A DNA stretch of 64,000 bases. Source: a virus. Location of the stretch: IMG/VR virus record IMGVR_UViG_3300045988_086533, positions 1 to 64,000 of that record, one strand, 5' to 3'. Position 1 is the stretch's first letter. Every line of letters begins with the position of its first letter. Below are positions 2,499-64,000 of the stretch, one piece after another. Below the pieces are notes generated by a model, which worked only from the letters and a program-made list of their open reading frames with translations, was not told the origin of the DNA and searched no databases. A program made the position numbers and the translations under genes.

Positions 2499-3256
2499 TA
2501 ACCTAAAAGACTGGCTGAAGTAAAACTCGGTTAATTCGGTGAAACCTAAACCATAAATGGCATGGTAATACCGAGCTAGGTACATATCTATTAATGGAGG
2601 TGATTATATGAAACCACTAATAATAGATAATATAGAGAATCCATTTTATTTCATCACTGAAAATGGTGATGTGTATAACAAAGAAGGTAAATTACTTACT
2701 AAACATATTACTGATGGGTATTATAGAGTTAAACTGTCTAGAGGATGTAAAAGAGGGATGTATAGGGTAAATAGATTAGTGGCTATGACATTTATTCCAA
2801 ATCCCAATAATTACCCTATAGTACATCATATAGATGCCGATAGATTAAATAATGACGTAAGTAATTTAGAATGGGTAGACAACTCCATGAATCAAATAGA
2901 ACGATTTAAAGTATATCCAGGAACTAAACGCAAACCGGTGTTGCAGTTAGATTTGGAAGGTAATATAATACATAAATTTGAAAGTCCTATACAGGCGGAA
3001 GAGGAGACCGGGATTGCTAGACAGAATATAAGCAAAGTATGTAGAGGCAAAAGAAAAACCGCAGGTGGTTATAAATGGAGATATGTACCAAGTGTAGAGA
3101 CTATCGAACAGAACCTATAATATAGGTTAACCTAGTAGAGTAGAAGTCAAGCGACTTCGAAACGCCGAGCAGTTTATCGGATAATTACCGATACTGAAGA
3201 GCTAGTCCGACACTCCAGGAAACTGGAGGAGGTGTAGCGAACCTCGTAACAGAATG
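2499..3256 (+). mobile_element. group I intron interrupting polymerase motif A, carrying a homing endonuclease ORF
   Basis: The exon end acttcagt (2491-2498) pairs with gctgaagt (2514-2521), giving a terminal U-G wobble at the 5' splice site (P1). The intron ends in G (3256). It contains a GAAA-tetraloop hairpin ctccag-gaaa-ctggag (3213-3228). Joining the exons restores DFS|QQEPR, compare DYSQIELR. Confidence 0.85.
2608..3120 (+). CDS. HNH homing endonuclease (I-HmuI-like), intron-encoded
   Basis: HNH motif VHHIDADRLNNDVSNLEWV. C-terminal intron-encoded-nuclease repeat ETGIARQNISKVCRGKRKTAGGYKWRY. Own RBS ggagg. Confidence 0.85.
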   Translation: MKPLIIDNIENPFYFITENGDVYNKEGKLLTKHITDGYYRVKLSRGCKRGMYRVNRLVAMTFIPNPNNYPIVHHIDADRLNNDVSNLEWVDNSMNQIERFKVYPGTKRKPVLQLDLEGNIIHKFESPIQAEEETGIARQNISKVCRGKRKTAGGYKWRYVPSVETIEQNL

Positions 3257-4168
3257 CAGCAAGAACCAAGATGTTTAGCCCACATGAGTGGTGATAAACA
3301 TATGATACAAGCATATTTAGACGGTAAAGACTTATATAGTACCATAGCAAGTAAACTATATAATATGCCATATGAGGAATGTAAAGAGTTTAGACCGGAT
3401 GGAACAGTTAATCCAGAAGGAAAAAATAGAAGAAGTAGTGTTAAACCTATATTATTAGGGATAATGTATGGTAGAGGCGTAACAAGTATAGCTGAGCAAA
3501 TGAATATTAGTAAAGAGGAGGCACAACAAGTTATTAATGACTTTTATGATCAGTTCCCAAATGTAAAAGGTTTTGTAGACTTTGCACAAGAAAACGCTAG
3601 AACTTACGGTTTTGTAGAGACTGCATGGGGTAGAAAAAGAAGACTACCTAATATGCAGTTAGACCCAATTGAAATAACAGTGGAGAACCCTAACTTAGTT
3701 GATACATTTAATCCATTAGATTTTACCGGTGGATCCACTACAGAGGTGAGCGATGAAGTTTATTTTAAATATCTTAAATTAATGAGAAAAGCGTTTGGTA
3801 AGGATGCAAAAGAAAAAATAAAACAAATGGCCAAGGATGAAGGATATAAATTAGTAGACAATGGAGGTTATATAGCTGATGCTCAAAGACAATGTGTTAA
3901 TAGTATTATTCAAGGAAGCGCAGCGGATATAACGAAGATAGCCATGATACGAATCCATGACAATAAACGATTGCAAGAATTGGGCTACAATCTTATAGCT
4001 TGTATTCATGATGAGGTATTAGGGGTTTGCCCAAAAGAGAACGCCAAAGAAGTTAGAGACATATTAGAACATATAATGGTACACGTAGTAGATGGTATAT
4101 TTGAAATACCAATGAAGACCGACATTGAAGTAACATACAGATGGTATGGAGAAGGAATAGAAATTTAA
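3257..4168 (+). CDS. polA: family A DNA polymerase, exon 2
   Basis: Begins QQEPRCLAHMSGD (the rest of motif A). Motif B-like RRSSVKPILLGIMYG, and motif C IHDEV. Confidence 0.9.
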   Translation, partial: QQEPRCLAHMSGDKHMIQAYLDGKDLYSTIASKLYNMPYEECKEFRPDGTVNPEGKNRRSSVKPILLGIMYGRGVTSIAEQMNISKEEAQQVINDFYDQFPNVKGFVDFAQENARTYGFVETAWGRKRRLPNMQLDPIEITVENPNLVDTFNPLDFTGGSTTEVSDEVYFKYLKLMRKAFGKDAKEKIKQMAKDEGYKLVDNGGYIADAQRQCVNSIIQGSAADITKIAMIRIHDNKRLQELGYNLIACIHDEVLGVCPKENAKEVRDILEHIMVHVVDGIFEIPMKTDIEVTYRWYGEGIEI

Positions 4169-5081: not shown

Positions 5082-6140
5082 ATGAAATTAAATACAAGTA
5101 TATTAAAAAATATGTTAAGTGCAGCGAGTAGATGTAAGCCTAGTAACTTATTAGAAATAACTAATTATTATGAATTAGATTTTAGCGTTGAGGGTATATC
5201 TCTTAGAGCTACAGATGGAGTTAACTTCATAACAGTTAATCATCCAACAAAATGTGATGAAGATATGTCAGTTATAGTAAAAGCTGATCAATTTAGTAAG
5301 TTGATAAATAAAACTACTAAAGATACAGTAGGACTTAAATTAATGGACAATTATTTAGAGGTAAAAGGTAATGGTACATATAAAGTAGAAATAGTTAGTG
5401 ATGAAGTTTACCCAACTTTGGATATAGATGCTGATAAAGAGTTTATGATAACATATACAACTTTGAGTAATGCAATAGTTGATGGTGCAAAAGCCAAAAG
5501 TACATCATCTAATGATGGTGTATTATATAGTTACTTACTACGAGATAATCAACTTATTACTGCAGATGCTATAAAAGTGTATAGTACAGAGTTGGACGGT
5601 GAGTATCTGGATGACATGGAATTATTAATACCTCCAACTTTAGCCAATTTATTACAATCTATAGATACAGAGAAGGTAATATTTACGGTAAATAAGGATT
5701 GTACATTATTAAGAGCAATAGGACAGAATGTAATTATTACAGGAGCATTACAAGAAGGGGCAGCTGAGTATCCAAATGTAGTTCCATTATTAGCTGGTAA
5801 ATATCCATATACTTGTGAGGTGGATGTTAAGGAAGTTTTACGAGCACTAGATAGATTGAACTTATTTGTGAGTCCATATGATAGAGGTATTATAGACTTA
5901 GTATTTACCAACACAAATATGACCATATCAACCGCTAGCAAGTCCCTAGAGGCGATTGAGTATACTAAAGGGATAGATTTACCTGACCCATTTATAATAA
6001 GTGTAGATGGGGGTTATTTAAAGGACTTATTTAGTGCAGTAGATGAACCTAATGTAAAAATACAATTCGGTACAGAAGAAACTATTAAGCTATGTACTAA
6101 GGATAGTATAATGATGTTGGCAACTGCCGACGAAGAATAG
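5082..6140 (+). CDS. dnaN: DNA polymerase III beta-like sliding clamp
   Basis: 352 aa. The N-terminal pattern (ISLRATDGVNFI ... EVYPTLD) matches the DnaN layout, and the length fits three domains. Confidence 0.7.
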   Translation: MKLNTSILKNMLSAASRCKPSNLLEITNYYELDFSVEGISLRATDGVNFITVNHPTKCDEDMSVIVKADQFSKLINKTTKDTVGLKLMDNYLEVKGNGTYKVEIVSDEVYPTLDIDADKEFMITYTTLSNAIVDGAKAKSTSSNDGVLYSYLLRDNQLITADAIKVYSTELDGEYLDDMELLIPPTLANLLQSIDTEKVIFTVNKDCTLLRAIGQNVIITGALQEGAAEYPNVVPLLAGKYPYTCEVDVKEVLRALDRLNLFVSPYDRGIIDLVFTNTNMTISTASKSLEAIEYTKGIDLPDPFIISVDGGYLKDLFSAVDEPNVKIQFGTEETIKLCTKDSIMMLATADEE

Positions 6141-8439: not shown

Positions 8440-9606
8440 ATGAGGGAGATTGATTTAAAAATGGCTGCATTGAATAAAAAATTTGGTGCAGATATAATAC
8501 AACAAGGAACTGACATAATAGAAGTGGATAAAATACCATTTAGTAGTCCTATGGCAAATTATATGACTTATGGTGGAATACCAATTGGAAAAATAACTGA
8601 GTTCTTTGGAGGTGAAGGGGGAGGAAAAACAACCTCCGCTCTTGATATTTGTGGTAATGCGCAAAAGAAATTCCAGGAGGTTTACGATAAAAAAGTTGGG
8701 GAATTGGTACAACAAATAGAACTATTACAACAAACTAACACAAAACAAGCACAAAAGGAAATTACAAAATTAAGCGCAGAATTAGATAAAGTACAGGAAA
8801 AAGGTGAAAAACTAGTATTATATATAGATACAGAACAAACTTTGGATACTGAATGGGCTAAGTTATTAGGCGTAGACACAGAGAAAATGATATTAGTAAG
8901 ACCACAAGAACAAACTGCAGAACAGGTACTACAAATAATAATTGAATTAATTAGTACTGGGAATGTGGGGTTATGCGTATTAGATAGTATACCTTGTCTA
9001 GTTCCTCAACAAATATTTGATGAGAGTATGGAGAAGAAAGCCTATGGCGGTATATCACAACCTTTAACTATATTTTGTAGTAAAATTTTACCTCATTTAA
9101 CAGTTAATCAATGTGCTTTCATAGGAATTAATCAAATACGTGAGGACTTAAGTAGTATGTTTAGTACCATAAGTACTCCAGGTGGTAAAGGTTGGAAACA
9201 TGCTTGTAGTTTAAGAATTAAATTTAGAAAAGATACATTATTGGACGAAAACAACAAAGAGTTAAGTAGTAAAGCTGAAAACCCAGCCGGTAATAGAGTT
9301 GGCATGGAAATTATAAAAACAAAGGTATGTAAACCAAATAGAAGACTAGGTTATTATACACTAAAATATTTAGAGGGTGTAGATACTCTATACGATATGA
9401 TTAATGTATGTATGTATTATAAAATAGTACAACAAGCGGGTTCTTGGTATAGAGTAATAGATGAGCAAAGTAATATAGTATTAGACAAGGAAGGCAATGA
9501 ATTGAACTTCCAAGGTATGACTAGATTTTTAGACTATTTACATAAACATGAAGATGTAGTTCATGAATTACTAACTAGACTAAATGGGGTGATGTTGGAT
9601 GAGTAA
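8440..9606 (+). CDS. recA: RecA-family recombinase
   Basis: Walker A GGEGGGKTT and Walker B-like LCVLDSI. QIRE and TPGGKGWKH resemble RecA loop regions. A coiled-coil insert of about 50 aa follows Walker A. Confidence 0.8.
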   Translation: MREIDLKMAALNKKFGADIIQQGTDIIEVDKIPFSSPMANYMTYGGIPIGKITEFFGGEGGGKTTSALDICGNAQKKFQEVYDKKVGELVQQIELLQQTNTKQAQKEITKLSAELDKVQEKGEKLVLYIDTEQTLDTEWAKLLGVDTEKMILVRPQEQTAEQVLQIIIELISTGNVGLCVLDSIPCLVPQQIFDESMEKKAYGGISQPLTIFCSKILPHLTVNQCAFIGINQIREDLSSMFSTISTPGGKGWKHACSLRIKFRKDTLLDENNKELSSKAENPAGNRVGMEIIKTKVCKPNRRLGYYTLKYLEGVDTLYDMINVCMYYKIVQQAGSWYRVIDEQSNIVLDKEGNELNFQGMTRFLDYLHKHEDVVHELLTRLNGVMLDE

Positions 9607-10225
9607 TAATGGTAATAAGTGCCAAGAAATAGTTATGCGCTATAAAAACGGTGAAAAAGATGCAATAAATGAATTACCCCAGTACATAGACAATATGGTA
9701 TATTCTCTATTAAAACCATATAAATTATATAATGATAGAGATGAAATGTATCAAGTTGCTTGGCAGTGTATAATGAAGTGTGTCGACCATTATGACCCAT
9801 CCTATGGCACATTATTCACGACATTTGCTTATCCAGCTATAAAAAGAGAACTACGACAATATAGGAATAGAATGGATAAACATAATAGATATACCACAGA
9901 TGGAGAACAGAATATATATAAGATATTATCTATAGACGGATATATACAACTCAAGCATCATGGACATATTAGATATACATCATTAGAAAATTATTTGGAG
10001 AGCAAGGAAGATGTAGAGCTTAGTGCTTTAGTACGTGAGTTAAAAGAAATTATTAGGGAAGAACTAAAGAGTGTGAAGAATGACAAACAACGTGCTATAA
10101 TAGCTGATTATCTGTGTGGCATAAAAGGTACATACATAGCATATCAGTACAGTGTATCACCTGCATATGTATCCAGAGTAGTAAAAGATTTTTTTAGAAA
10201 AGTTAAAGAACAAGTTAGCGAATAA
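9599..10225 (+). CDS. phage-encoded sigma-70-family-like factor
   Basis: Region 2-like YQVAWQCIMKCVDHYDPSYGTLFTTFAYPAIKRELRQY, and a C-terminal HTH YIAYQYSVSPAYVSRVVKDF (region 4-like). Confidence 0.55.
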   Translation: MSNNGNKCQEIVMRYKNGEKDAINELPQYIDNMVYSLLKPYKLYNDRDEMYQVAWQCIMKCVDHYDPSYGTLFTTFAYPAIKRELRQYRNRMDKHNRYTTDGEQNIYKILSIDGYIQLKHHGHIRYTSLENYLESKEDVELSALVRELKEIIREELKSVKNDKQRAIIADYLCGIKGTYIAYQYSVSPAYVSRVVKDFFRKVKEQVSE

Positions 10226-16678: not shown

Positions 16679-17008
16679 ATGTTAAAGATAAACCAAATAG
16701 AAGGAAAAATATTTAAAGTAGAAGCTCAAATAAGAGAAGCTAAAAAACAAGAAAACATGAAAGTATTAGAAAGTTTAAGATTAGAAAGTGCTCAATTAAG
16801 ACAAGAACTTGAAGATAGAAGAAGATTAGAACAAGAGATATATGTAATGATAAATGAATGTCAAGTAGTTTACAACAGTAAAGACGACAATAAAATAAAT
16901 GCTTGGTTAGAAAATAATTACAAACCATTTAGATCATTTTGGATCAGTAAATTTGGAGAAGATGTATTTGGAGAAACTTGGAATAAAATAAATAGAGCTA
17001 CCAAATAG
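16679..17008 (+). CDS. hypothetical coiled-coil protein
   Basis: ORF with RBS aaggaagg. Confidence 0.5.
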   Translation: MLKINQIEGKIFKVEAQIREAKKQENMKVLESLRLESAQLRQELEDRRRLEQEIYVMINECQVVYNSKDDNKINAWLENNYKPFRSFWISKFGEDVFGETWNKINRATK

Positions 17009-17036
17009 GTAGCTCCCAATAAGGGGGTTGGGGGAA

Positions 17037-17294
17037 ATGTTAGATATAAACTTCGGTAAAATGGAATTGTTGCACAGTTACCAAAAGCACGGACTTAATA
17101 AAACTAAAATATTAGAAGCATTAGAAACTGGTATAAAAGATGTAGTACCAGGTAAACAAAGTCATAAATTAATATACACAATGAATTATACTACAATAGT
17201 AGTAGACAAGAATAATAAGTTCTTAACTGCTTACAAAACAAGTGAGCAACAATATACTACTAAAAAAATAAAAGGTTTAAATGGAGGTAAATAA
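17037..17294 (+). CDS. hypothetical protein
   Basis: ORF. ATG 17037 follows a G-rich RBS. Confidence 0.45.
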   Translation: MLDINFGKMELLHSYQKHGLNKTKILEALETGIKDVVPGKQSHKLIYTMNYTTIVVDKNNKFLTAYKTSEQQYTTKKIKGLNGGK

Positions 17295-25654: not shown

Positions 25655-25819
25655 ATGGTGGATAAATATAGAGAATTAGATGAGAAATATTATGAGATGT
25701 TTGATGATTATTTTCCAAGTTTTCAACTAGGACCTGATGAAGACAAAATACAACAGTGTATTGATGCCGGAAAGGATGCATATGAATTATTTAATTTAAA
25801 AGAAGATGTTAATTATTAG
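25655..25819 (+). CDS. hypothetical small protein (54 aa)
   Basis: Not in the ORF track. The ATG overlaps the MuF stop. Paralogous to the ORF at 25871 (QQCIDAGKDAYELF versus DRCIQSGKTYGEIF). Confidence 0.4.
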   Translation: MVDKYRELDEKYYEMFDDYFPSFQLGPDEDKIQQCIDAGKDAYELFNLKEDVNY

Positions 25820-57296: not shown

Positions 57297-57575
57297 ATGA
57301 AAATAATAGATGGAAATATGTATTATAGTTTAACAGAGATAGGGTCTATTATTGGTAGAACTAAAGCTACCATTTTAAGATGGTATGAGTATGAAGATCA
57401 GTTACCTGTAGAACAACGTAGATTACCAAACTACATAACATTAGGACAACAACACGCTAAATATTTTGCGGCACATGACATTGACACATTTACTGAGTTC
57501 ATGAAAACTAATAAAAGAGGGACTATGAAAAATGTCAGTGATAAATACAACGGTAACTTAGCAAATAATAAATAA
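57297..57575 (+). CDS. putative MerR/excisionase-type HTH DNA-binding protein
   Basis: YYSLTEIGSIIGRTKATILRWYEY. Confidence 0.4.
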   Translation: MKIIDGNMYYSLTEIGSIIGRTKATILRWYEYEDQLPVEQRRLPNYITLGQQHAKYFAAHDIDTFTEFMKTNKRGTMKNVSDKYNGNLANNK

Positions 57576-58435: not shown

Positions 58436-58470
58436 GTTAGTAAAACGCTCAAATTTTCTATACTATATAA
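58436..58470 (+). promoter_or_regulatory. phage promoter motif, copy j
   Basis: gttagtaaa-N14-tatactatataa. Confidence 0.55.
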
Positions 58471-58508: not shown

Positions 58509-58543
58509 GTTAGTAAAATCGCAAATAATTCTATACTATATAT
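58509..58543 (+). promoter_or_regulatory. phage promoter motif, copy k (tandem with j)
   Basis: gttagtaaa-N14-tatactatatat. Confidence 0.55.
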
Positions 58544-58650
58544 AGATATTAAATATTAGTTATCCTAAAAATAAATAAAGAATCCCGCAATGGGAGATTA
58601 TTATGCAACAAAGTTGCATAATTCTTTTCAACTAAAAAAGGAGGAATATT

Positions 58651-58917
58651 ATGATAAGTACTAATAATTATTTGGTGGTGACTCCAAACAACTATTTTTT
58701 ATGCAATGATGTTAGACACATTATTAATAGTATAAAACACAGTTGTTATAGATTAAATGGTCATCAACTACAAAACTTTAATAAACTTATTACTAGACAT
58801 ATAGAGAGAGCTGATTGGAATAAACCAATAAAGAAACAAAAGTATATCATTAAAGATGATATATATGTAGTAAAGTTAGATAAAGATGAAATAAAAATGT
58901 TTTTTAGGGGGTGTTAA
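58651..58917 (+). CDS. hypothetical protein
   Basis: ORF with RBS aaggagg. Confidence 0.5.
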   Translation: MISTNNYLVVTPNNYFLCNDVRHIINSIKHSCYRLNGHQLQNFNKLITRHIERADWNKPIKKQKYIIKDDIYVVKLDKDEIKMFFRGC

Positions 58918-58919
58918 TT

Positions 58920-59726
58920 ATGGACGAAAAATACAAAATATATAATGGTGATTGCTTAGAGGTTATGGATAAACTGATTGAGCAGGGAATAAAAGTTGAT
59001 GCAGTAATATGTGATCTTCCATACGGAATAACTGGATATAAGTGGGATAGTGTAATTCCATTTAATAAAATGTGGGATAAAGTGAATAAATTAATTAAAG
59101 CTGATTGTGCAATTGTATTATTTGGACGTGAACCTTTTACAAGTGCATTAAGAATGAGCAATATAAGCAATTATAAATATGAATGGTACTGGAATAAAAT
59201 TAGTAGTGGTAATTTTGTAGGGGCAAAATTTGCTCCTTTTAAAATAATTGAAAATATTTGTATTTTTAGTAATGGGAAATGTCCCTATAATCCACAAATG
59301 ATAGAACGAACTGAAAAAGAAATAAATGATTATATTGCAAAGAGTCGTAATAATAATATTACAGTTAAAAATGATTATTTATATGATGGATTTAAAAGTG
59401 GTGTCATTGTGCCTTCATCCAACCCTAAATATAAATATCCCGTTAATTTATTAAATTTTAACTGGAAAGCTAAAGAATGTAATAGTAGATATAGAGTGCA
59501 CCCAACCCAAAAACCAGTAGATCTACTTGAGTATTTAGTTAAAACTTATACCAATGAAGGTGATTTAATATTAGACTTTACAATGGGGAGTGGCAGCACA
59601 GGAGTAGCTTGTTTAAATACTAACCGTAGATTTATTGGAATAGAAAAGGAAGAAAAGTATTTTATTATAACCAAAGAGCGACTAGAAGATGCTAAATTGA
59701 ATAATAGACAAAAGAAATTATTTTAG
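58920..59726 (+). CDS. DNA methyltransferase (beta-class), paralogue 2
   Basis: VICDLPYG (motif IV variant), FTMGSGSTGVAC (motif I). Ends in NNRQKKLF. Confidence 0.85.
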   Translation: MDEKYKIYNGDCLEVMDKLIEQGIKVDAVICDLPYGITGYKWDSVIPFNKMWDKVNKLIKADCAIVLFGREPFTSALRMSNISNYKYEWYWNKISSGNFVGAKFAPFKIIENICIFSNGKCPYNPQMIERTEKEINDYIAKSRNNNITVKNDYLYDGFKSGVIVPSSNPKYKYPVNLLNFNWKAKECNSRYRVHPTQKPVDLLEYLVKTYTNEGDLILDFTMGSGSTGVACLNTNRRFIGIEKEEKYFIITKERLEDAKLNNRQKKLF

Positions 59727-60001: not shown

Positions 60002-60694
60002 ATGAATAATGAAAACTATGAATTATATCAAGGTGATTGCTTGGTCGTTATGGATAAACTGATTGAGGATGGGATAAAAGTAGATGCAGTAATATCAGAT
60101 CCACCTTATGGGATGGAGTTTAAAAGTAATCGTAGAAAGGAAAAATATGAAAAAATTAGTAATGATGATGATTTATCATTTTTAGATGAATATTTTCAAA
60201 AATGTAATAGGCTGTTAAAAGATGATACTCATATATATTGCTTTTGTAGTTGGCATAATATAGATAAATTTAAGATTGCCTTTGAAAAATACTTTACATT
60301 AAAAAATATAATAGTATGGGAAAAGAATAATGCATCTATGGGTGATTTGTATGGATCATATGCTCCTAAGCACGAATTTATATTATTTGGGCATAAGGGG
60401 AGAAGATTAAGAAATGGTAAAAGATTACCGGATGTTATACAAGCCAAAAGAACTGGAAATAAATTACATCCAACACAAAAACCCGTTGATTTATTAGAGA
60501 TTTTTATAAAACAATCAACAAATGAAAATGATGTAATTTTAGATTCATTTATGGGTAGTGGTAGCACTGGGGTTGCTTGTTTAAAAACCAAAAGGAGATT
60601 TATAGGCATTGAAAAAGAGGAAAAATATTTTAATATAACTAAAGAACGACTAGCATATGCTAGCTTAAATAATAGACAAAAAAAATTATTTTAG
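60002..60694 (+). CDS. DNA methyltransferase (beta-class), paralogue 3
   Basis: ISDPPYG and FMGSGSTGVAC. Ends in NNRQKKLF. Start at MNNENYELY, after gagggaga. Confidence 0.85.
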   Translation: MNNENYELYQGDCLVVMDKLIEDGIKVDAVISDPPYGMEFKSNRRKEKYEKISNDDDLSFLDEYFQKCNRLLKDDTHIYCFCSWHNIDKFKIAFEKYFTLKNIIVWEKNNASMGDLYGSYAPKHEFILFGHKGRRLRNGKRLPDVIQAKRTGNKLHPTQKPVDLLEIFIKQSTNENDVILDSFMGSGSTGVACLKTKRRFIGIEKEEKYFNITKERLAYASLNNRQKKLF

Positions 60695-60695
60695 A

Positions 60696-60730
60696 GTTAG
60701 TAAACTGTATAGTTTTTCTATACTATATAT
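60696..60730 (+). promoter_or_regulatory. phage promoter motif, copy l
   Basis: gttagtaaa-N14-tatactatatat followed by gtaac. Confidence 0.6.
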
Positions 60731-60899
60731 GTAACTTATTATTAAATTATTTTATTATTTTAATTTTTATTATTTTCTTATATGACCCAGTAGTGTATAA
60801 TAAGAGAGTAGGTGATTAACTTCATATAACCAACTAAGAAATTATTAACAATCCCCATATTTATATTCCAACGGCTTGGTAACCCGTTGGAATTTTTTT
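60731..60899 (+). ncRNA. candidate small non-coding RNA (about 165 nt), bounded by a promoter and a terminator
   Basis: No ORF longer than 8 codons with an RBS. Bounded by promoter l and the terminator at 60866-60899. A UCCCC motif (60852-60856) lies just 5' of the terminator. Confidence 0.4.
60866..60899 (+). terminator. intrinsic terminator
   Basis: 9-bp stem ttccaacgg / ccgttggaa, 9-nt loop, T7. Confidence 0.7.
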
Positions 60900-60909
60900 A
60901 TTTATTTTA

Positions 60910-60944
60910 GTTAGTAAAATTTGGTATTTTTATATACTATATTT
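60910..60944 (+). promoter_or_regulatory. phage promoter motif, copy m
   Basis: gttagtaaa-N14-tatactatattt followed by gtaac. Confidence 0.55.
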
Positions 60945-60982
60945 GTAACACAAGATAAATAAAATTTGGAGGAGTGATTTAT

Positions 60983-61678
60983 ATGAGATTAAATTTAATA
61001 GGTAATGAAGCTGATAGACAACTTGTATTAGCTAAGGAACAAGAAGGGAAAATAAATTTAGTTAACCTACTTAAGAAATATGGTGATGTAGTAGATTATA
61101 TGACTGAACCAATGGTAGCTAATTTTTATGGAGTGCCAAATAAAACTATTAAAACGTTAGCAACTAGAAATGAAAGTGAGTTAAAAGGATATGGATATAA
61201 AGTATATAAAAAAAGTGAAATCCTAAAGTTTCAAGATGAAACTTTAGAGAATGTACCAAATAGAGGATTAAGATTATATCCAACTAAAGCGGTAATAGTG
61301 GTAGGTATGATGTTAACTGATAGTCCAGTTGCCGAACAATTAAGAAGGGATATAATGGACATATTATTTGGCAAGGAAGTTGCGATACCAACTGAGAGCA
61401 CTATTAGAAATGTAGTTAGTACTGAACTTGACAAAAGAGTACCACAATTGGTTGGGTGTAAAGATGCTCAAGTAAAAGCCATTGTTAAAGCCATTAAAGG
61501 TAATTTATTTATTAAAACTAAAAAACAAGATTATGCAAATTATGAGACTGTAGTAGCATGGTTATTAGGGAAATATGGTGTGTATAAATTAGAGGATATA
61601 CCATTTAGTGATGACTTATATGTTGAGATAAAAGATTTTGTTAAGAAATTACATCCAAGACAAAAAAGATTATTTTAG
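60983..61678 (+). CDS. ORF6N/antirepressor-like DNA-binding protein
   Basis: MVANFYGVPNKTIKTLATRNESEL...LRLYPTKAVIVVGMML resembles the ORF6N domain. Ends in HPRQKRLF. Confidence 0.45.
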   Translation: MRLNLIGNEADRQLVLAKEQEGKINLVNLLKKYGDVVDYMTEPMVANFYGVPNKTIKTLATRNESELKGYGYKVYKKSEILKFQDETLENVPNRGLRLYPTKAVIVVGMMLTDSPVAEQLRRDIMDILFGKEVAIPTESTIRNVVSTELDKRVPQLVGCKDAQVKAIVKAIKGNLFIKTKKQDYANYETVVAWLLGKYGVYKLEDIPFSDDLYVEIKDFVKKLHPRQKRLF

Positions 61679-61680
61679 TA

Positions 61681-61715
61681 GTTAGTAAAACACAACTTTT
61701 TTCTATACTATATAT
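61681..61715 (+). promoter_or_regulatory. phage promoter motif, copy n
   Basis: gttagtaaa-N14-tatactatatat followed by gtaag. Confidence 0.6.
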
Positions 61716-61809
61716 GTAAGGGAAATAACCCCTCCCTTACATACACAACCCCTTAATATTTTATTTTTTACCCCGGTACCTATTCCCCCTTTGGTATCGG
61801 GGGTTTTTT
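61716..61809 (+). ncRNA. candidate small RNA (about 90 nt) with three C-rich motifs
   Basis: 5' hairpin gtaaggga / tcccttac with loop aataacccc. Linker caaccccttaa. Terminator ccccggtacc / ggtatcgggg with loop tattcccccttt, then T6. No ORF. Confidence 0.5.
61771..61809 (+). terminator. intrinsic terminator
   Basis: 10-bp stem (one G-U pair), 12-nt C-rich loop, T6. Confidence 0.7.
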
Positions 61810-61813
61810 CTTT

Positions 61814-61848
61814 GTTAGTAAAATTAGAATTTTTAATATACTATAAGT
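61814..61848 (+). promoter_or_regulatory. phage promoter motif, copy o (variant -10)
   Basis: gttagtaaa-N14-tatactataagt. Confidence 0.5.
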
Positions 61849-61865
61849 AAAGGGAGGTTTTGCAT

Positions 61866-62579
61866 ATGTATGATGTAAAAGATTTTAAATTTATTAAAAA
61901 TAGATGTTGGTTTAGGACTAACTGTCCTATGTATAATACAAAGGACTGCAATTGTAGTTGTAGTGTATATTTTCAGTATTACTATTTAGTTAATCTAGCA
62001 AATATACCACCAAATAAGCAGCAACCGGAGGACTTGAAGTTGAGCGCTGGAGATGACCTTAAAAAGTATGAATATCTTAATGGTGTGAAGAATAATATTA
62101 ATGAATTTGTACATGATGGATGTAATCTATATTTATACAGTCCTTACTTTGGTAATGGTAAAACTACTTGGTCCATAAAGTTGATGAGCAAATATTTTAG
62201 TAATATTTGGAATGGCAATGGCACTCGTTGTAGAGGTCTATTCATCAATGTAGATGAATTTCTAATGGCTAAAAGAAATGCCATAAAACGACCTGACTTA
62301 AGACTAGAAGAAATGGAAAAATTAATCCCAAGCGTAGACCTTATAGTATGGGATGACATAGGAGTTACAAAATTAAAAGAATATGACCATCAAATATTAT
62401 TCAGTTTAATCAATCCTCGTATAGTAAATAACAAAGCTAATATATTTACTAGTAATGTTATTGATGAACAATTGGATGATAATATTGGGGGTAGATTGGC
62501 AAGCAGAATATTAGATACAAGTACAATAGTTGAATTTACTAACAAGCCACAAAGGAAACCAAAAGGGGTGAGAATATAA
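61866..62579 (+). CDS. DnaC/IstB-like helicase loader ATPase with a Cys-rich N-terminus
   Basis: Walker A SPYFGNGKTT and Walker B LIVWDDIG. N-terminal CWFRTNCPMYNTKDCNCSC. Lies upstream of dnaB. Confidence 0.65.
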   Translation: MYDVKDFKFIKNRCWFRTNCPMYNTKDCNCSCSVYFQYYYLVNLANIPPNKQQPEDLKLSAGDDLKKYEYLNGVKNNINEFVHDGCNLYLYSPYFGNGKTTWSIKLMSKYFSNIWNGNGTRCRGLFINVDEFLMAKRNAIKRPDLRLEEMEKLIPSVDLIVWDDIGVTKLKEYDHQILFSLINPRIVNNKANIFTSNVIDEQLDDNIGGRLASRILDTSTIVEFTNKPQRKPKGVRI

Positions 62580-63902: not shown

Positions 63903-64000
63903 ATGGAAATTATTAATGATAAATATAAATTATATCAAGGTGACTGCTTAGAGATTATGGATAAATTGATTGAGGAGAGAGTAGTAGTAGACTTAACTGT
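63903..64000 (+). CDS. DNA methyltransferase, paralogue 4 (5' fragment, cut by the window edge)
   Basis: MEIINDKYKLYQGDCLEIMDKLIEE matches the N-termini of paralogues 1-3. RBS aaggagg. Confidence 0.6.
   Translation, partial: MEIINDKYKLYQGDCLEIMDKLIEERVVVDLT

Follow-up and report, generated by a model that had tools for sequence, protein, structure and literature searches.

The DNA stretch analyzed here comprises 64,000 nt (31.9% G+C) of an uncultured virus (IMG/VR record IMGVR_UViG_3300045988_086533, positions 1 to 64,000; hereafter the window), close to the end of which a DnaC-like helicase-loader gene (dnaC) and a replicative helicase gene (dnaB) are preceded by a 94-nt non-coding unit at positions 61716-61809. 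This unit is a self-contained promoter-to-terminator stretch and lies immediately upstream of the dnaC promoter. We assign a probability of roughly 0.55 to the reading that it encodes a functional, separately transcribed small RNA (sRNA) of approximately 90-94 nt, which would act via its runs of cytosine (C-runs). The reading is carried by the conservation of the unit among related phages and, above all, by C-run motifs that persist while the terminator stem around one of them is replaced.

Organization of the unit

A sequence-only reading of the window had described a promoter, a hairpin, a linker, and a terminator with a 12-nt loop and T6 in a unit of about 90 nt that is free of open reading frames (ORFs). 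All of these features were found where that reading had placed them (Table 1), and no ORF of 25 or more amino acids overlaps the unit on either strand, nor is any ORF conserved in the relatives. Hairpin 1 begins at the predicted transcript start, G61716, which lies 7 nt past the -10 hexamer; its 5' arm resembles a Shine-Dalgarno (SD) sequence and its 3' arm an anti-SD sequence. The terminator has a 10-bp stem with seven G-C pairs followed by U6, as is characteristic of intrinsic terminators, and an atypically large loop. An AU-rich tract follows the C-run of the linker (61755-61770) and adjoins the terminator; this tract and the U6 tail would be candidate sites for Hfq. The features of terminator-ended sRNAs in general are likewise present, i.e. 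an own promoter, the lack of a conserved ORF, a Rho-independent terminator with U-tail, and a conserved single-stranded seed.

The minimum free energy structure (RNAfold) consists of exactly two hairpins (-30.3 kcal/mol; z = -4.2; equaled by none of 200 shuffled sequences), and the C-runs at 61729-32, 61749-52 and 61785-89 have a probability of ~1.0 of being unpaired in the window RNA. The + strand of the window contains 16 runs of at least four Cs, four of which are located inside the 94-nt unit (~0.02 expected); one of these four is part of the terminator stem, and a fifth C-run of the window lies in the neighboring non-coding unit.

Table 1. Features of the unit at 61716-61809, of the adjoining dnaC gene and of the neighboring non-coding unit
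Feature	Position	Strand	Description
Unit promoter	61681-61711	+	full-consensus copy GTTAGTAAAA-N13-TATACTAT, no mismatches; -10 hexamer TATACT at 61704-61709
Hairpin 1	61716-61740	+	stem GUAAGGGA/UCCCUUAC, loop AAUAACCCC; loop C-run 61729-61732
Linker	61741-61770	+	AUACACAACCCCUUAAUAUUUUAUUUUUUA; 30 nt, single-stranded, zero G; C-run 61749-61752, core CAACCCCUUAA
Terminator	61771-61809	+	arms CCCCGGUACC (61771-61780) and GGUAUCGGGG (61793-61802); U-run T6 61804-61809
Terminator loop	61781-61792	+	12-nt UAUUCCCCCUUU; C-run 61785-61789
dnaC promoter and SD	61814-61857	+	full-consensus promoter 61814-61844, SD GGGAGG 61852-61857; outside the RNA, downstream boundary
DnaC-like gene	61866-62579	+	ATG at 61866; Pfam matches IstB_IS21 and Bac_DnaA ATPase
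UGGUAA-loop unit	60696-60899	+	promoter 60696-60726, body 60727-60865, terminator 60866-60899; no ORF

Conservation among close relatives

The close relatives comprise 17 IMG/VR contigs with a DnaC-like protein that is 89-100% identical to that of the window. The unit is located immediately upstream of the dnaC promoter in all 17 as in the window, with a full promoter between its terminator and dnaC in every case, and 13 further metagenome loci agree with this arrangement. The gene on the 5' side of the unit differs among the relatives (at least five contexts), and the junction is located at the promoter. Between clades, the unit is 80-89% identical, compared with 55-75% identity at the fourfold-degenerate sites of the adjacent dnaC; this conservation beyond that of the dnaC synonymous sites indicates purifying selection.

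The C-runs of the linker and of the terminator loop are unpaired in every relative, whereas the C-run in the loop of hairpin 1 is exposed only in the window's subgroup and in L066, and its Cs are paired with an internal GGG elsewhere. Three exposed CCCC motifs, as originally proposed for this RNA, are therefore a property of that subgroup and of L066 and not of most relatives. A lack of conservation of the C-rich motifs in related phages had been named as a ground for abandoning the sRNA; the linker and terminator-loop runs are kept, and only the hairpin-1 run is not. In the L004 clade, the hairpin contains the anti-SD-like sequence ACCUCCUU.

Many relatives have an ATG at position 10, i.e. 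2-3 nt past an SD-like GUAAGGA, and the window has none. A small protein was considered and rejected, since the start codon is not conserved, the frame reads methionine-stop in L005/L006 and stops after eight codons in L003 and L016, and indels shift the frame elsewhere.

Distant lineages and covariation

The distant set consisted of contigs with DnaC homologues 81-65% identical to that of the window, and a covariance model built from the close relatives retrieves the distant members of the family. The same plan was found in L066 (81% DnaC identity), L067 (78%), L062 and L071/72 (74%), and the L104 clade (~66%). In the L104 clade, the unit is located one gene further upstream of dnaC, and in L067 and L104 another unit or a gene intervenes between the unit and dnaC. 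No such unit is present upstream of dnaC in L073/74 (72%), L064/65 (68%), and L018 (59%).

The terminator stem occurs in seven variants. Besides the arms of the window, these are (5' arm/3' arm) CCUCGAUACC/GGUAUCGAGG in the L004 clade, which differ from those of the window by compensatory changes, and ACCCAGUACC/GGUACUGGGU in L066, CCUCUGUGUUG/CAACACAGAGG in L067, CUCUUGUAGGU/ACCUACAAGAG in L071/72, GUUCCUUACUC/GAGUAAGGAAC in L062, and AUACUGAGUUGA/UCAACUCAGUAU in the L104 clade, all five of which are unrelated in sequence to the stem of the window. The loops comprise 8-16 nt and are C-rich (UAUUCCCCCUUU, UCCCCCCUUU, UCCCCCUU, UUUACCCUCCCCUUUU, UA(A/C)CUCCCCCUUUU, GGACUCCCCCU, and UACCUCUUUU); the loop motif CUCCCC(C)UUU is kept across the seven stem variants, with a full C-run in all but L062 (UACCUCUUUU). 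The linkers are G-free or contain one G (zero G in seven of nine representatives, one G in L004), and the linker of every lineage contains (A/U)CCC(C)UU(U/A) with a C-run of 3-5 Cs, followed by U-rich sequence. Termination requires neither a large loop nor a given loop sequence. The persistence of the motif through the complete turnover of the stem is the strongest single argument for functional C-runs.

In a model-fitted alignment of 28 family members, all 16 base pairs (six in hairpin 1 and ten in the terminator) show compensatory changes; 99.8% of the pair cells are paired, compared with 76% in column shuffles and 35-52% when the partners were slid by 1-3 columns, and the terminator pairs are paired in 100% of the cells. 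A total of 25 of 406 pair cells are G.U pairs, which ties the structure to RNA of the + strand rather than to the opposite strand or to DNA. A broader model, run with filters off, detected a single unit in the window (85.6 bits); the next match (22.6 bits) is the 3' part of the neighboring unit.

Candidate targets

Duplex energies were computed for the exposed segments of the RNA with the 73 predicted start regions of the window. The complementarity of positions 61729-61740 (CCCCUCCCUUAC) to the sequence in front of dnaC, on which the sequence-only reading had based its proposed target, is real (with GUAAAGGGAGG at 61847-61857, one-base bulge), but the ribosome-binding site (RBS) of dnaC does not stand out as a specific target. 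Its start region pairs with loop 1 and the 3' arm at -15.5 kcal/mol and ranks ninth of the 73; eight of the 12 bases of the pairing segment belong to the 3' arm of hairpin 1 and are locked in a -12 kcal/mol hairpin; and in L067, L071/72 and L062 the hairpin-1 arm has no anti-SD character while the dnaC SD is still normal. The rank, the buried arm and the loss in distant lineages together leave dnaC unsupported as target, and that the RNA specifically throttles dnaC is hardly probable.

The best partners of the linker and loop seeds are nine start regions with AAGGGG-type SDs, i.e. those of the genes at 9599 (sigma factor), 11720 (clamp-loader-like), 58920 (methylase) and 62579 (dnaB), and of five small ORFs (12420, 17037, 18225, 55458, and 14091). 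Seven of the nine pair with the seeds more strongly than with the 16S anti-SD core, by 3 kcal/mol or more; for 14091 the pairing with the seeds is barely better than that with the anti-SD. The SD of the sigma-70 region-2 gene (9599-10225) among these nine is unusual (AUGGGGUGAU); the protein presumably serves middle or late transcription.

The top partner among the start regions is gene 17037 (AAGGGGGUUG with linker CAACCCCUU), which ranks 11th in a scan of the whole window. In 17 genomes, the start region of its orthologue keeps A(A/G)GGGGUUG(A/G)G, which is complementary to the linker sequence C(A/U)CAACCC(C)UU. The leader of gene 17037 (17000-17040) can also fold on itself (CUCCC...GGGGG), which would sequester the first G-run. 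Two other pairings were set aside: that of gene 12420 (AAGGGGGAA with the window loop UUCCCCCUU) is uninformative, since most relatives have an unchanged start region in spite of their differing loops, and that of the linker with the start region of the upstream gene (31 nt, 71% complementary) is AT-driven and unremarkable (-11.4 kcal/mol).

Sibling units

A sibling unit (type B; the unit upstream of dnaC being type A) follows dnaB in all close relatives and is located ~35 nt past the dnaB stop codon in L001 (6030-6137), L003, L004, L012, and others, and related post-dnaB units were detected by covariance-model search in L062, L064, L070, L071, and L073/74. Type B comprises the same early promoter, a 5' hairpin (GUAGAGGAAAUGUGGAGGCACAUUCUUCUAC) at the transcript start with a loop that exposes GGAGG, a G-free linker with AACUCCCCUUUUUU (seed AACUCCCCUUUU), and a terminator stem that resembles that of type A (ACCCUGGCAUUG vs ACCCCGGUACC); again, a separate promoter is located 3' of the unit. 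L088 matches the window at 97-98.5% identity over 58.5-63.9 kb; there, type B (5640-5761) comes ~1 kb after dnaB, with a methylase gene in between. In the window, dnaB is likewise followed by a methylase-like gene, and by analogy to L088 the genome probably carries type B just past position 64000.

The neighboring non-coding unit of the window, the UGGUAA-loop unit (Table 1), is probably the candidate sRNA 1 of the sequence-only reading. Its body is very AT-rich, with AAUCCCCAUA at 60850-60859, and it has no match in Rfam. The unit is present also in L013-15, where it directly abuts the C-run unit upstream of dnaC, and in L066, L064/L100, and L104, and its loop sequence C(U/C)UGGUAA(A)C is kept over at least five unrelated stems; the post-dnaB units of L062 and L073/74 also have the UGGUAA motif, in the loop of their 5' hairpin.

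Promoter repeats, genome and host

The promoter of the unit belongs to a repeat with 17 copies in the window (up to three mismatches; 0.93 copies expected by chance), all on the + strand. Most copies are followed directly by an SD and a start codon, and the copies are confined to the non-structural parts of the genome (1-26 kb and 57.5-62 kb). The same positions in the relatives carry GTTAACA-N17-TATAAT, which identifies the repeated promoters as sigma-A-like early promoters. Two perfect copies (58436-58466 and 58509-58539) are 73 nt apart, with AT-rich, ORF-free sequence between them; between the second copy and the gene at 58651 lies a structured leader of ~110 nt, which has hairpins at 58583-58595 and 58600-58622. 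Another copy, at 57557, is separated from the SD of gene 57670 by a leader of ~80 nt; this leader contains a long imperfect hairpin (AACCUCAUAGAACCUACCUAAAAUAGGUUUUAUGGGGUU) and may be regulatory.

Three consecutive genes ending at 59700-59726, 60668-60694 and 61652-61678 (two N6/N4 methylases and a 231-aa gene without a recognized function) encode a common C-terminus, ...RQK(K/R)LF*. The DNA at these gene ends (AGACAAAAAAGATTATTTTAG) runs directly into a promoter copy, and the relatives diverge exactly at these junctions; the shuffling repeat unit thus seems to span the last codons of the upstream gene and the promoter. The exact 18-mer TATACTATATATGTAAGG, which covers the end of the promoter and the first transcribed bases, was found also in four unrelated larger phages (L030, L038, L043, and L057; IMG/VR contigs of 88-122 kb), behind a canonical TTGACA -35 element and followed by a structured leader of ~120 nt, which suggests that the hosts have in common a preference for this -10 element and the bases transcribed first.

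All genes of the window are located on the + strand. Pfam scans covered 43 phage proteins and recognized PolA, beta clamp, clamp-loader subunits, RecA, RecU, ThyX, dUTPase, a sigma-70 region-2 protein, an SNF2 helicase, several N6/N4 methylases, terminase, and an Amidase_2-SH3 endolysin. By these assignments the phage encodes its own replication machinery. The genome looks virulent, since it encodes a replisome and a sigma factor and an integrase was not seen among the scanned proteins. The family-A DNA polymerase gene appears to be split into an N-terminal exonuclease/polymerase part (1053-2501), followed by an HNH/NUMOD homing-endonuclease gene (2608-3120), and an ORF (3254-4168) that presumably represents the remainder of the polymerase.

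No DNA match, near or distant, was found among 50,697 deposited phages, and the best matches of DnaB in cultured phages are 43-44% identical. The relatives derive from human-gut metagenomes, and the closest genomic relatives of the endolysin are found in a metagenome-assembled genome of Bacilli (68%), in Clostridium sp. (52%) and in Terrisporobacter (~50%). The host therefore is probably a gut Firmicute, Clostridium- or Bacilli-like.

Proposed function and alternative explanations

In the proposed mechanism, the early phage promoter would fire at G61716, and the 5'-terminal hairpin would protect the 5' end of the transcript. In Firmicutes, 5' stem-loops and SD-like stabilizers (STAB-SD) protect RNAs from RNase J1. 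Hairpin 1 starts with the first transcribed base, carries an SD-like sequence and, by analogy, is probably such a 5'-end stabilizer; this role would account for hairpin 1 only and not for the conserved C-runs. The working parts would be the two exposed C-runs, CAACCCCUUAA in the G-free linker and UUCCCCCUUU in the oversized terminator loop, pairing in trans with AAGGGG(G)-type translation-initiation regions of phage early and/or host mRNAs and thereby blocking 30S binding or altering the stability of the mRNA. The transcript would end with the AU-rich tract, the terminator and the U-tail, which might bind Hfq; a phage-encoded RNA chaperone, including an Hfq gene, was not recognized among the 43 proteins scanned.

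Several points count against this reading. The start, the 3' end and the abundance of the transcript are all predicted from sequence. The alignment was fitted to the structure of the model and mixes paralogues, which inflates the covariation counts, and the terminator would covary with or without a function of the RNA. The family covariance model finds nothing in phiCTP1 or Flasso, the nearest cultured phages. A real gene (promoter at 25819) has exactly the same promoter and, as its SD, the first seven transcribed bases of the unit (TATACTATATATGTAAGG; GUAAGGG/A); the unit could accordingly have originated as a decayed gene start. Since every C-run can pair with every SD, the target analysis is weak, and no target can be singled out with confidence from these predictions. 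Gene 17037 was rejected as a co-evolving target (cognate -17.8 vs non-cognate -19.2 kcal/mol; permutation p = 1.0), and the RBS of dnaB (AAAAGGGGUGAG) as a conserved one, since in L014-L016 its GGGG SD is lost (AAGAGAGGUGAG) although the sRNA there is unchanged. SDs of the GGGG type are marginally enriched in non-structural genes (9/52 vs 0/21; Fisher p = 0.052), and their absence from the structural block is suggestive only.

Among the alternatives, it appears unlikely that the unit is a functionless remnant, i.e. the promoter and leader of a lost gene that came to lie beside a terminator through the module shuffling rampant in these phages, with the terminator insulating dnaC-dnaB and the transcript being a by-product. 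Such a history would fit the 5' identity with a real gene, the ATG behind the SD-like GUAAGGA in many relatives, the varying upstream gene with its junction at the promoter, and the ...RQK(K/R)LF* ends that precede the promoter in at least three genes. A remnant would not be expected, however, to be better conserved than the neighboring synonymous sites, to remain G-free in its linker with a C-run, to keep the CUCCCC(C)UUU loop while the stems turn over completely, or to have a sibling of the same plan after dnaB; a pure insulator, in turn, could do without a promoter of its own and without a 12-nt loop.

A cis-acting leader or attenuator, in which a phage or host RNA-binding protein or a modified RNA polymerase recognizes hairpin 1 and both C-rich elements and decides on read-through from the first promoter into dnaC-dnaB (in the style of lambda pR'-tR' with Q, HK022 put, or RAT/antiterminator systems), is improbable. 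A promoter-proximal hairpin with a terminator ~55 nt later is the classical layout of antitermination systems, the unit is located directly upstream of dnaC in 18 of 18 close genomes, and the two similar CCCCUU motifs could form a bipartite protein-binding site. Control of read-through would add little, since a promoter with zero mismatches is located between the terminator and dnaC in every genome; the intervening unit or gene in L067 and L104, and the location of the sibling downstream of dnaB, again with an own promoter after it, also speak against it, as does the lack of a recognized antiterminator-like protein among the 43 scanned proteins.

We give an equally low rating to a decoy or sponge RNA that would titrate a host factor, offer the SD-like 5' element to the 30S subunit, mimic the 16S anti-SD (ACCUCCUU in the L004 clade), or sponge a G-rich host or phage RNA. 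B. subtilis has RNAs that act as sponges of C-rich sRNAs (PMC8216469). The 5' arm itself (GUAAGGGA) is SD-like, and a GGAGG is exposed in the loop of the sibling's 5' hairpin. The L004-clade hairpin, furthermore, contains ACCUCCUUA, which is the sequence of the 3' end of 16S ribosomal RNA. These SD-like and anti-SD-like elements of hairpin 1, however, pair with each other and are not conserved in L067, L071 and L062; the conserved elements are the unpaired C-runs, which fit a direct pairing to G-rich RNA, and no protein partner can be proposed. An element acting as DNA in replication, such as an origin, a hairpin for single-strand initiation, or a loading site for primase or helicase, is very improbable. 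The location flanks the helicase-loader and helicase genes, and tandem promoters with AT-rich DNA recall transcription-activated phage origins such as the primary origin of T7. However, no iterons or repeats besides the promoters are present in 60600-62000; the 25 G.U pairs would be weak in DNA and would correspond to A.C mismatches on the opposite strand; and the position varies among the relatives, from upstream of dnaC to one gene further away or downstream of dnaB.

The reading as a separately transcribed sRNA leads to a wider one, which we consider doubtful, namely that the sibling RNAs (type A before dnaC, type B after dnaB, and the UGGUAA-loop family) are RsaE/RoxS-like anti-SD regulators in a widespread group of probably virulent human-gut Firmicute phages, which outcompete the ribosome at AAGGGG-type RBSs and so time the shut-off of a subset of the early genes (sigma factor, clamp-loader, methylase, helicase) and/or hijack the host's regulon of C-rich sRNAs. 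If this is true, it would represent the first RNA-based translational program for a lytic phage of Gram-positive gut bacteria among the literature searched. Known phage regulatory RNAs derive mostly from temperate enterobacterial phages and staphylococcal prophages. In a recent review (PMC12197685), a text search for Gram-positive, Bacillus, Clostridi and lytic phage gave nothing, and the only Gram-positive example found was SprY, an RNA of a staphylococcal prophage.

If expressed, the RNA would represent a new family of sRNAs in abundant uncultured human-gut phages, and at least one sibling unit goes with it. The 5' identity with the promoter and SD of the gene behind the promoter at 25819 hints at an origin from a duplicated promoter-leader cassette, and the unit would be an apparent example of an sRNA gene born in this way. 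For an intergenic element of a phage, the signal from the comparisons is unusually clean, and the model is compact and testable, with two short C-run seeds, 73 predicted start regions and nine AAGGGG-type SDs. As a lesson for annotation, promoter-to-terminator gaps in such phages deserve to be annotated.

Comparison with known systems

No Rfam family matched the window (cmscan, whole window, gathering threshold) or the loci of nine relatives, and a permissive scan of 60650-61900 (E up to 10) yielded 14 weak chance matches, none of which was RsaE or SprX. Two matches below threshold were rejected, RAGATH-23 for its score (22 bits vs a cut-off of 92.6) and SraC/RyeA for the wrong strand. A ToxI-like type III antitoxin RNA was also rejected, since there are no tandem or direct repeats besides the promoters and the downstream gene encodes a DnaC/IstB-like ATPase. 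From the lack of an Rfam match it follows that the phage RNA is not a member of RsaE/RoxS (RF01820) or SprX, though it is built like them; the likeness to C-rich Firmicute sRNAs that had been noted from the sequence is one of build. The RNA credibly represents a previously undescribed family of a known mechanistic kind, so far found only in uncultured human-gut phages of Firmicutes, in which it is located around the genes for the helicase loader and the helicase.

RsaE/RoxS has multiple C-rich regions that pair with G-rich SDs, and RoxS contains a duplicated CCCCUUUGUU (PMC4409812). The phage RNA is alike in size (~90-115 nt) and in the order of a 5' hairpin, a single-stranded C-rich segment and a Rho-independent terminator, and it has several unpaired C-runs for which G-rich SD partners would be expected. 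Two of these C-rich regions lie in a repeated motif, CCCCUU(U) being shared by the linker and the loop; this twice-occurring C-run motif with U-rich sequence (CCCCUUA/CCCCCUUU) corresponds to the duplicated motif of RoxS, and the exact repeat CCCCUUUGUU is not present in the phage unit. RsaE/RoxS is a chromosomal gene of Bacillales under redox/NO two-component control by ResDE/SrrAB, whereas the phage RNA is located behind a repeated phage early promoter, places one of its C-runs in the terminator loop, and has a gut Clostridium-like Firmicute as its likely host. RsaE is not known from gut Clostridium-like Firmicutes.

SprX (RsaOR) of Staphylococcus aureus converting phages pairs via a C-rich (UCCC) loop with the RBS of spoVG and blocks ribosome loading (PMC4005690). 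Both RNAs are phage-borne; for the unit, accessible C-rich loops are predicted, and complementary SDs are present in the window. The two have no homology in sequence or structure, in that the unit gave no Rfam match, and SprX consists of the stem-loops H1-H4 (PMC4005690), compared with two hairpins in 94 nt here. Furthermore, SprX is expressed in the lysogen of a temperate phage and has host targets, whereas the unit described here is located in a virulent-looking genome behind a repeated early promoter.

A further comparison is provided by LPR1/PreS of phage lambda, an sRNA that acts on host dnaN, as reported in a preprint (bioRxiv 10.1101/2024.10.31.621285); the above review (PMC12197685) gives more examples. 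These sRNAs are short phage transcripts with an own promoter and terminator that regulate mRNAs during infection, as is proposed here, and they differ from the present case in that its sibling copies flank dnaC-dnaB and its seed is a C-run. If expressed, the RNA would extend the C-rich, anti-SD type of regulation known from RsaE/RoxS, RNAIII and SprX to the infection programs of phages.

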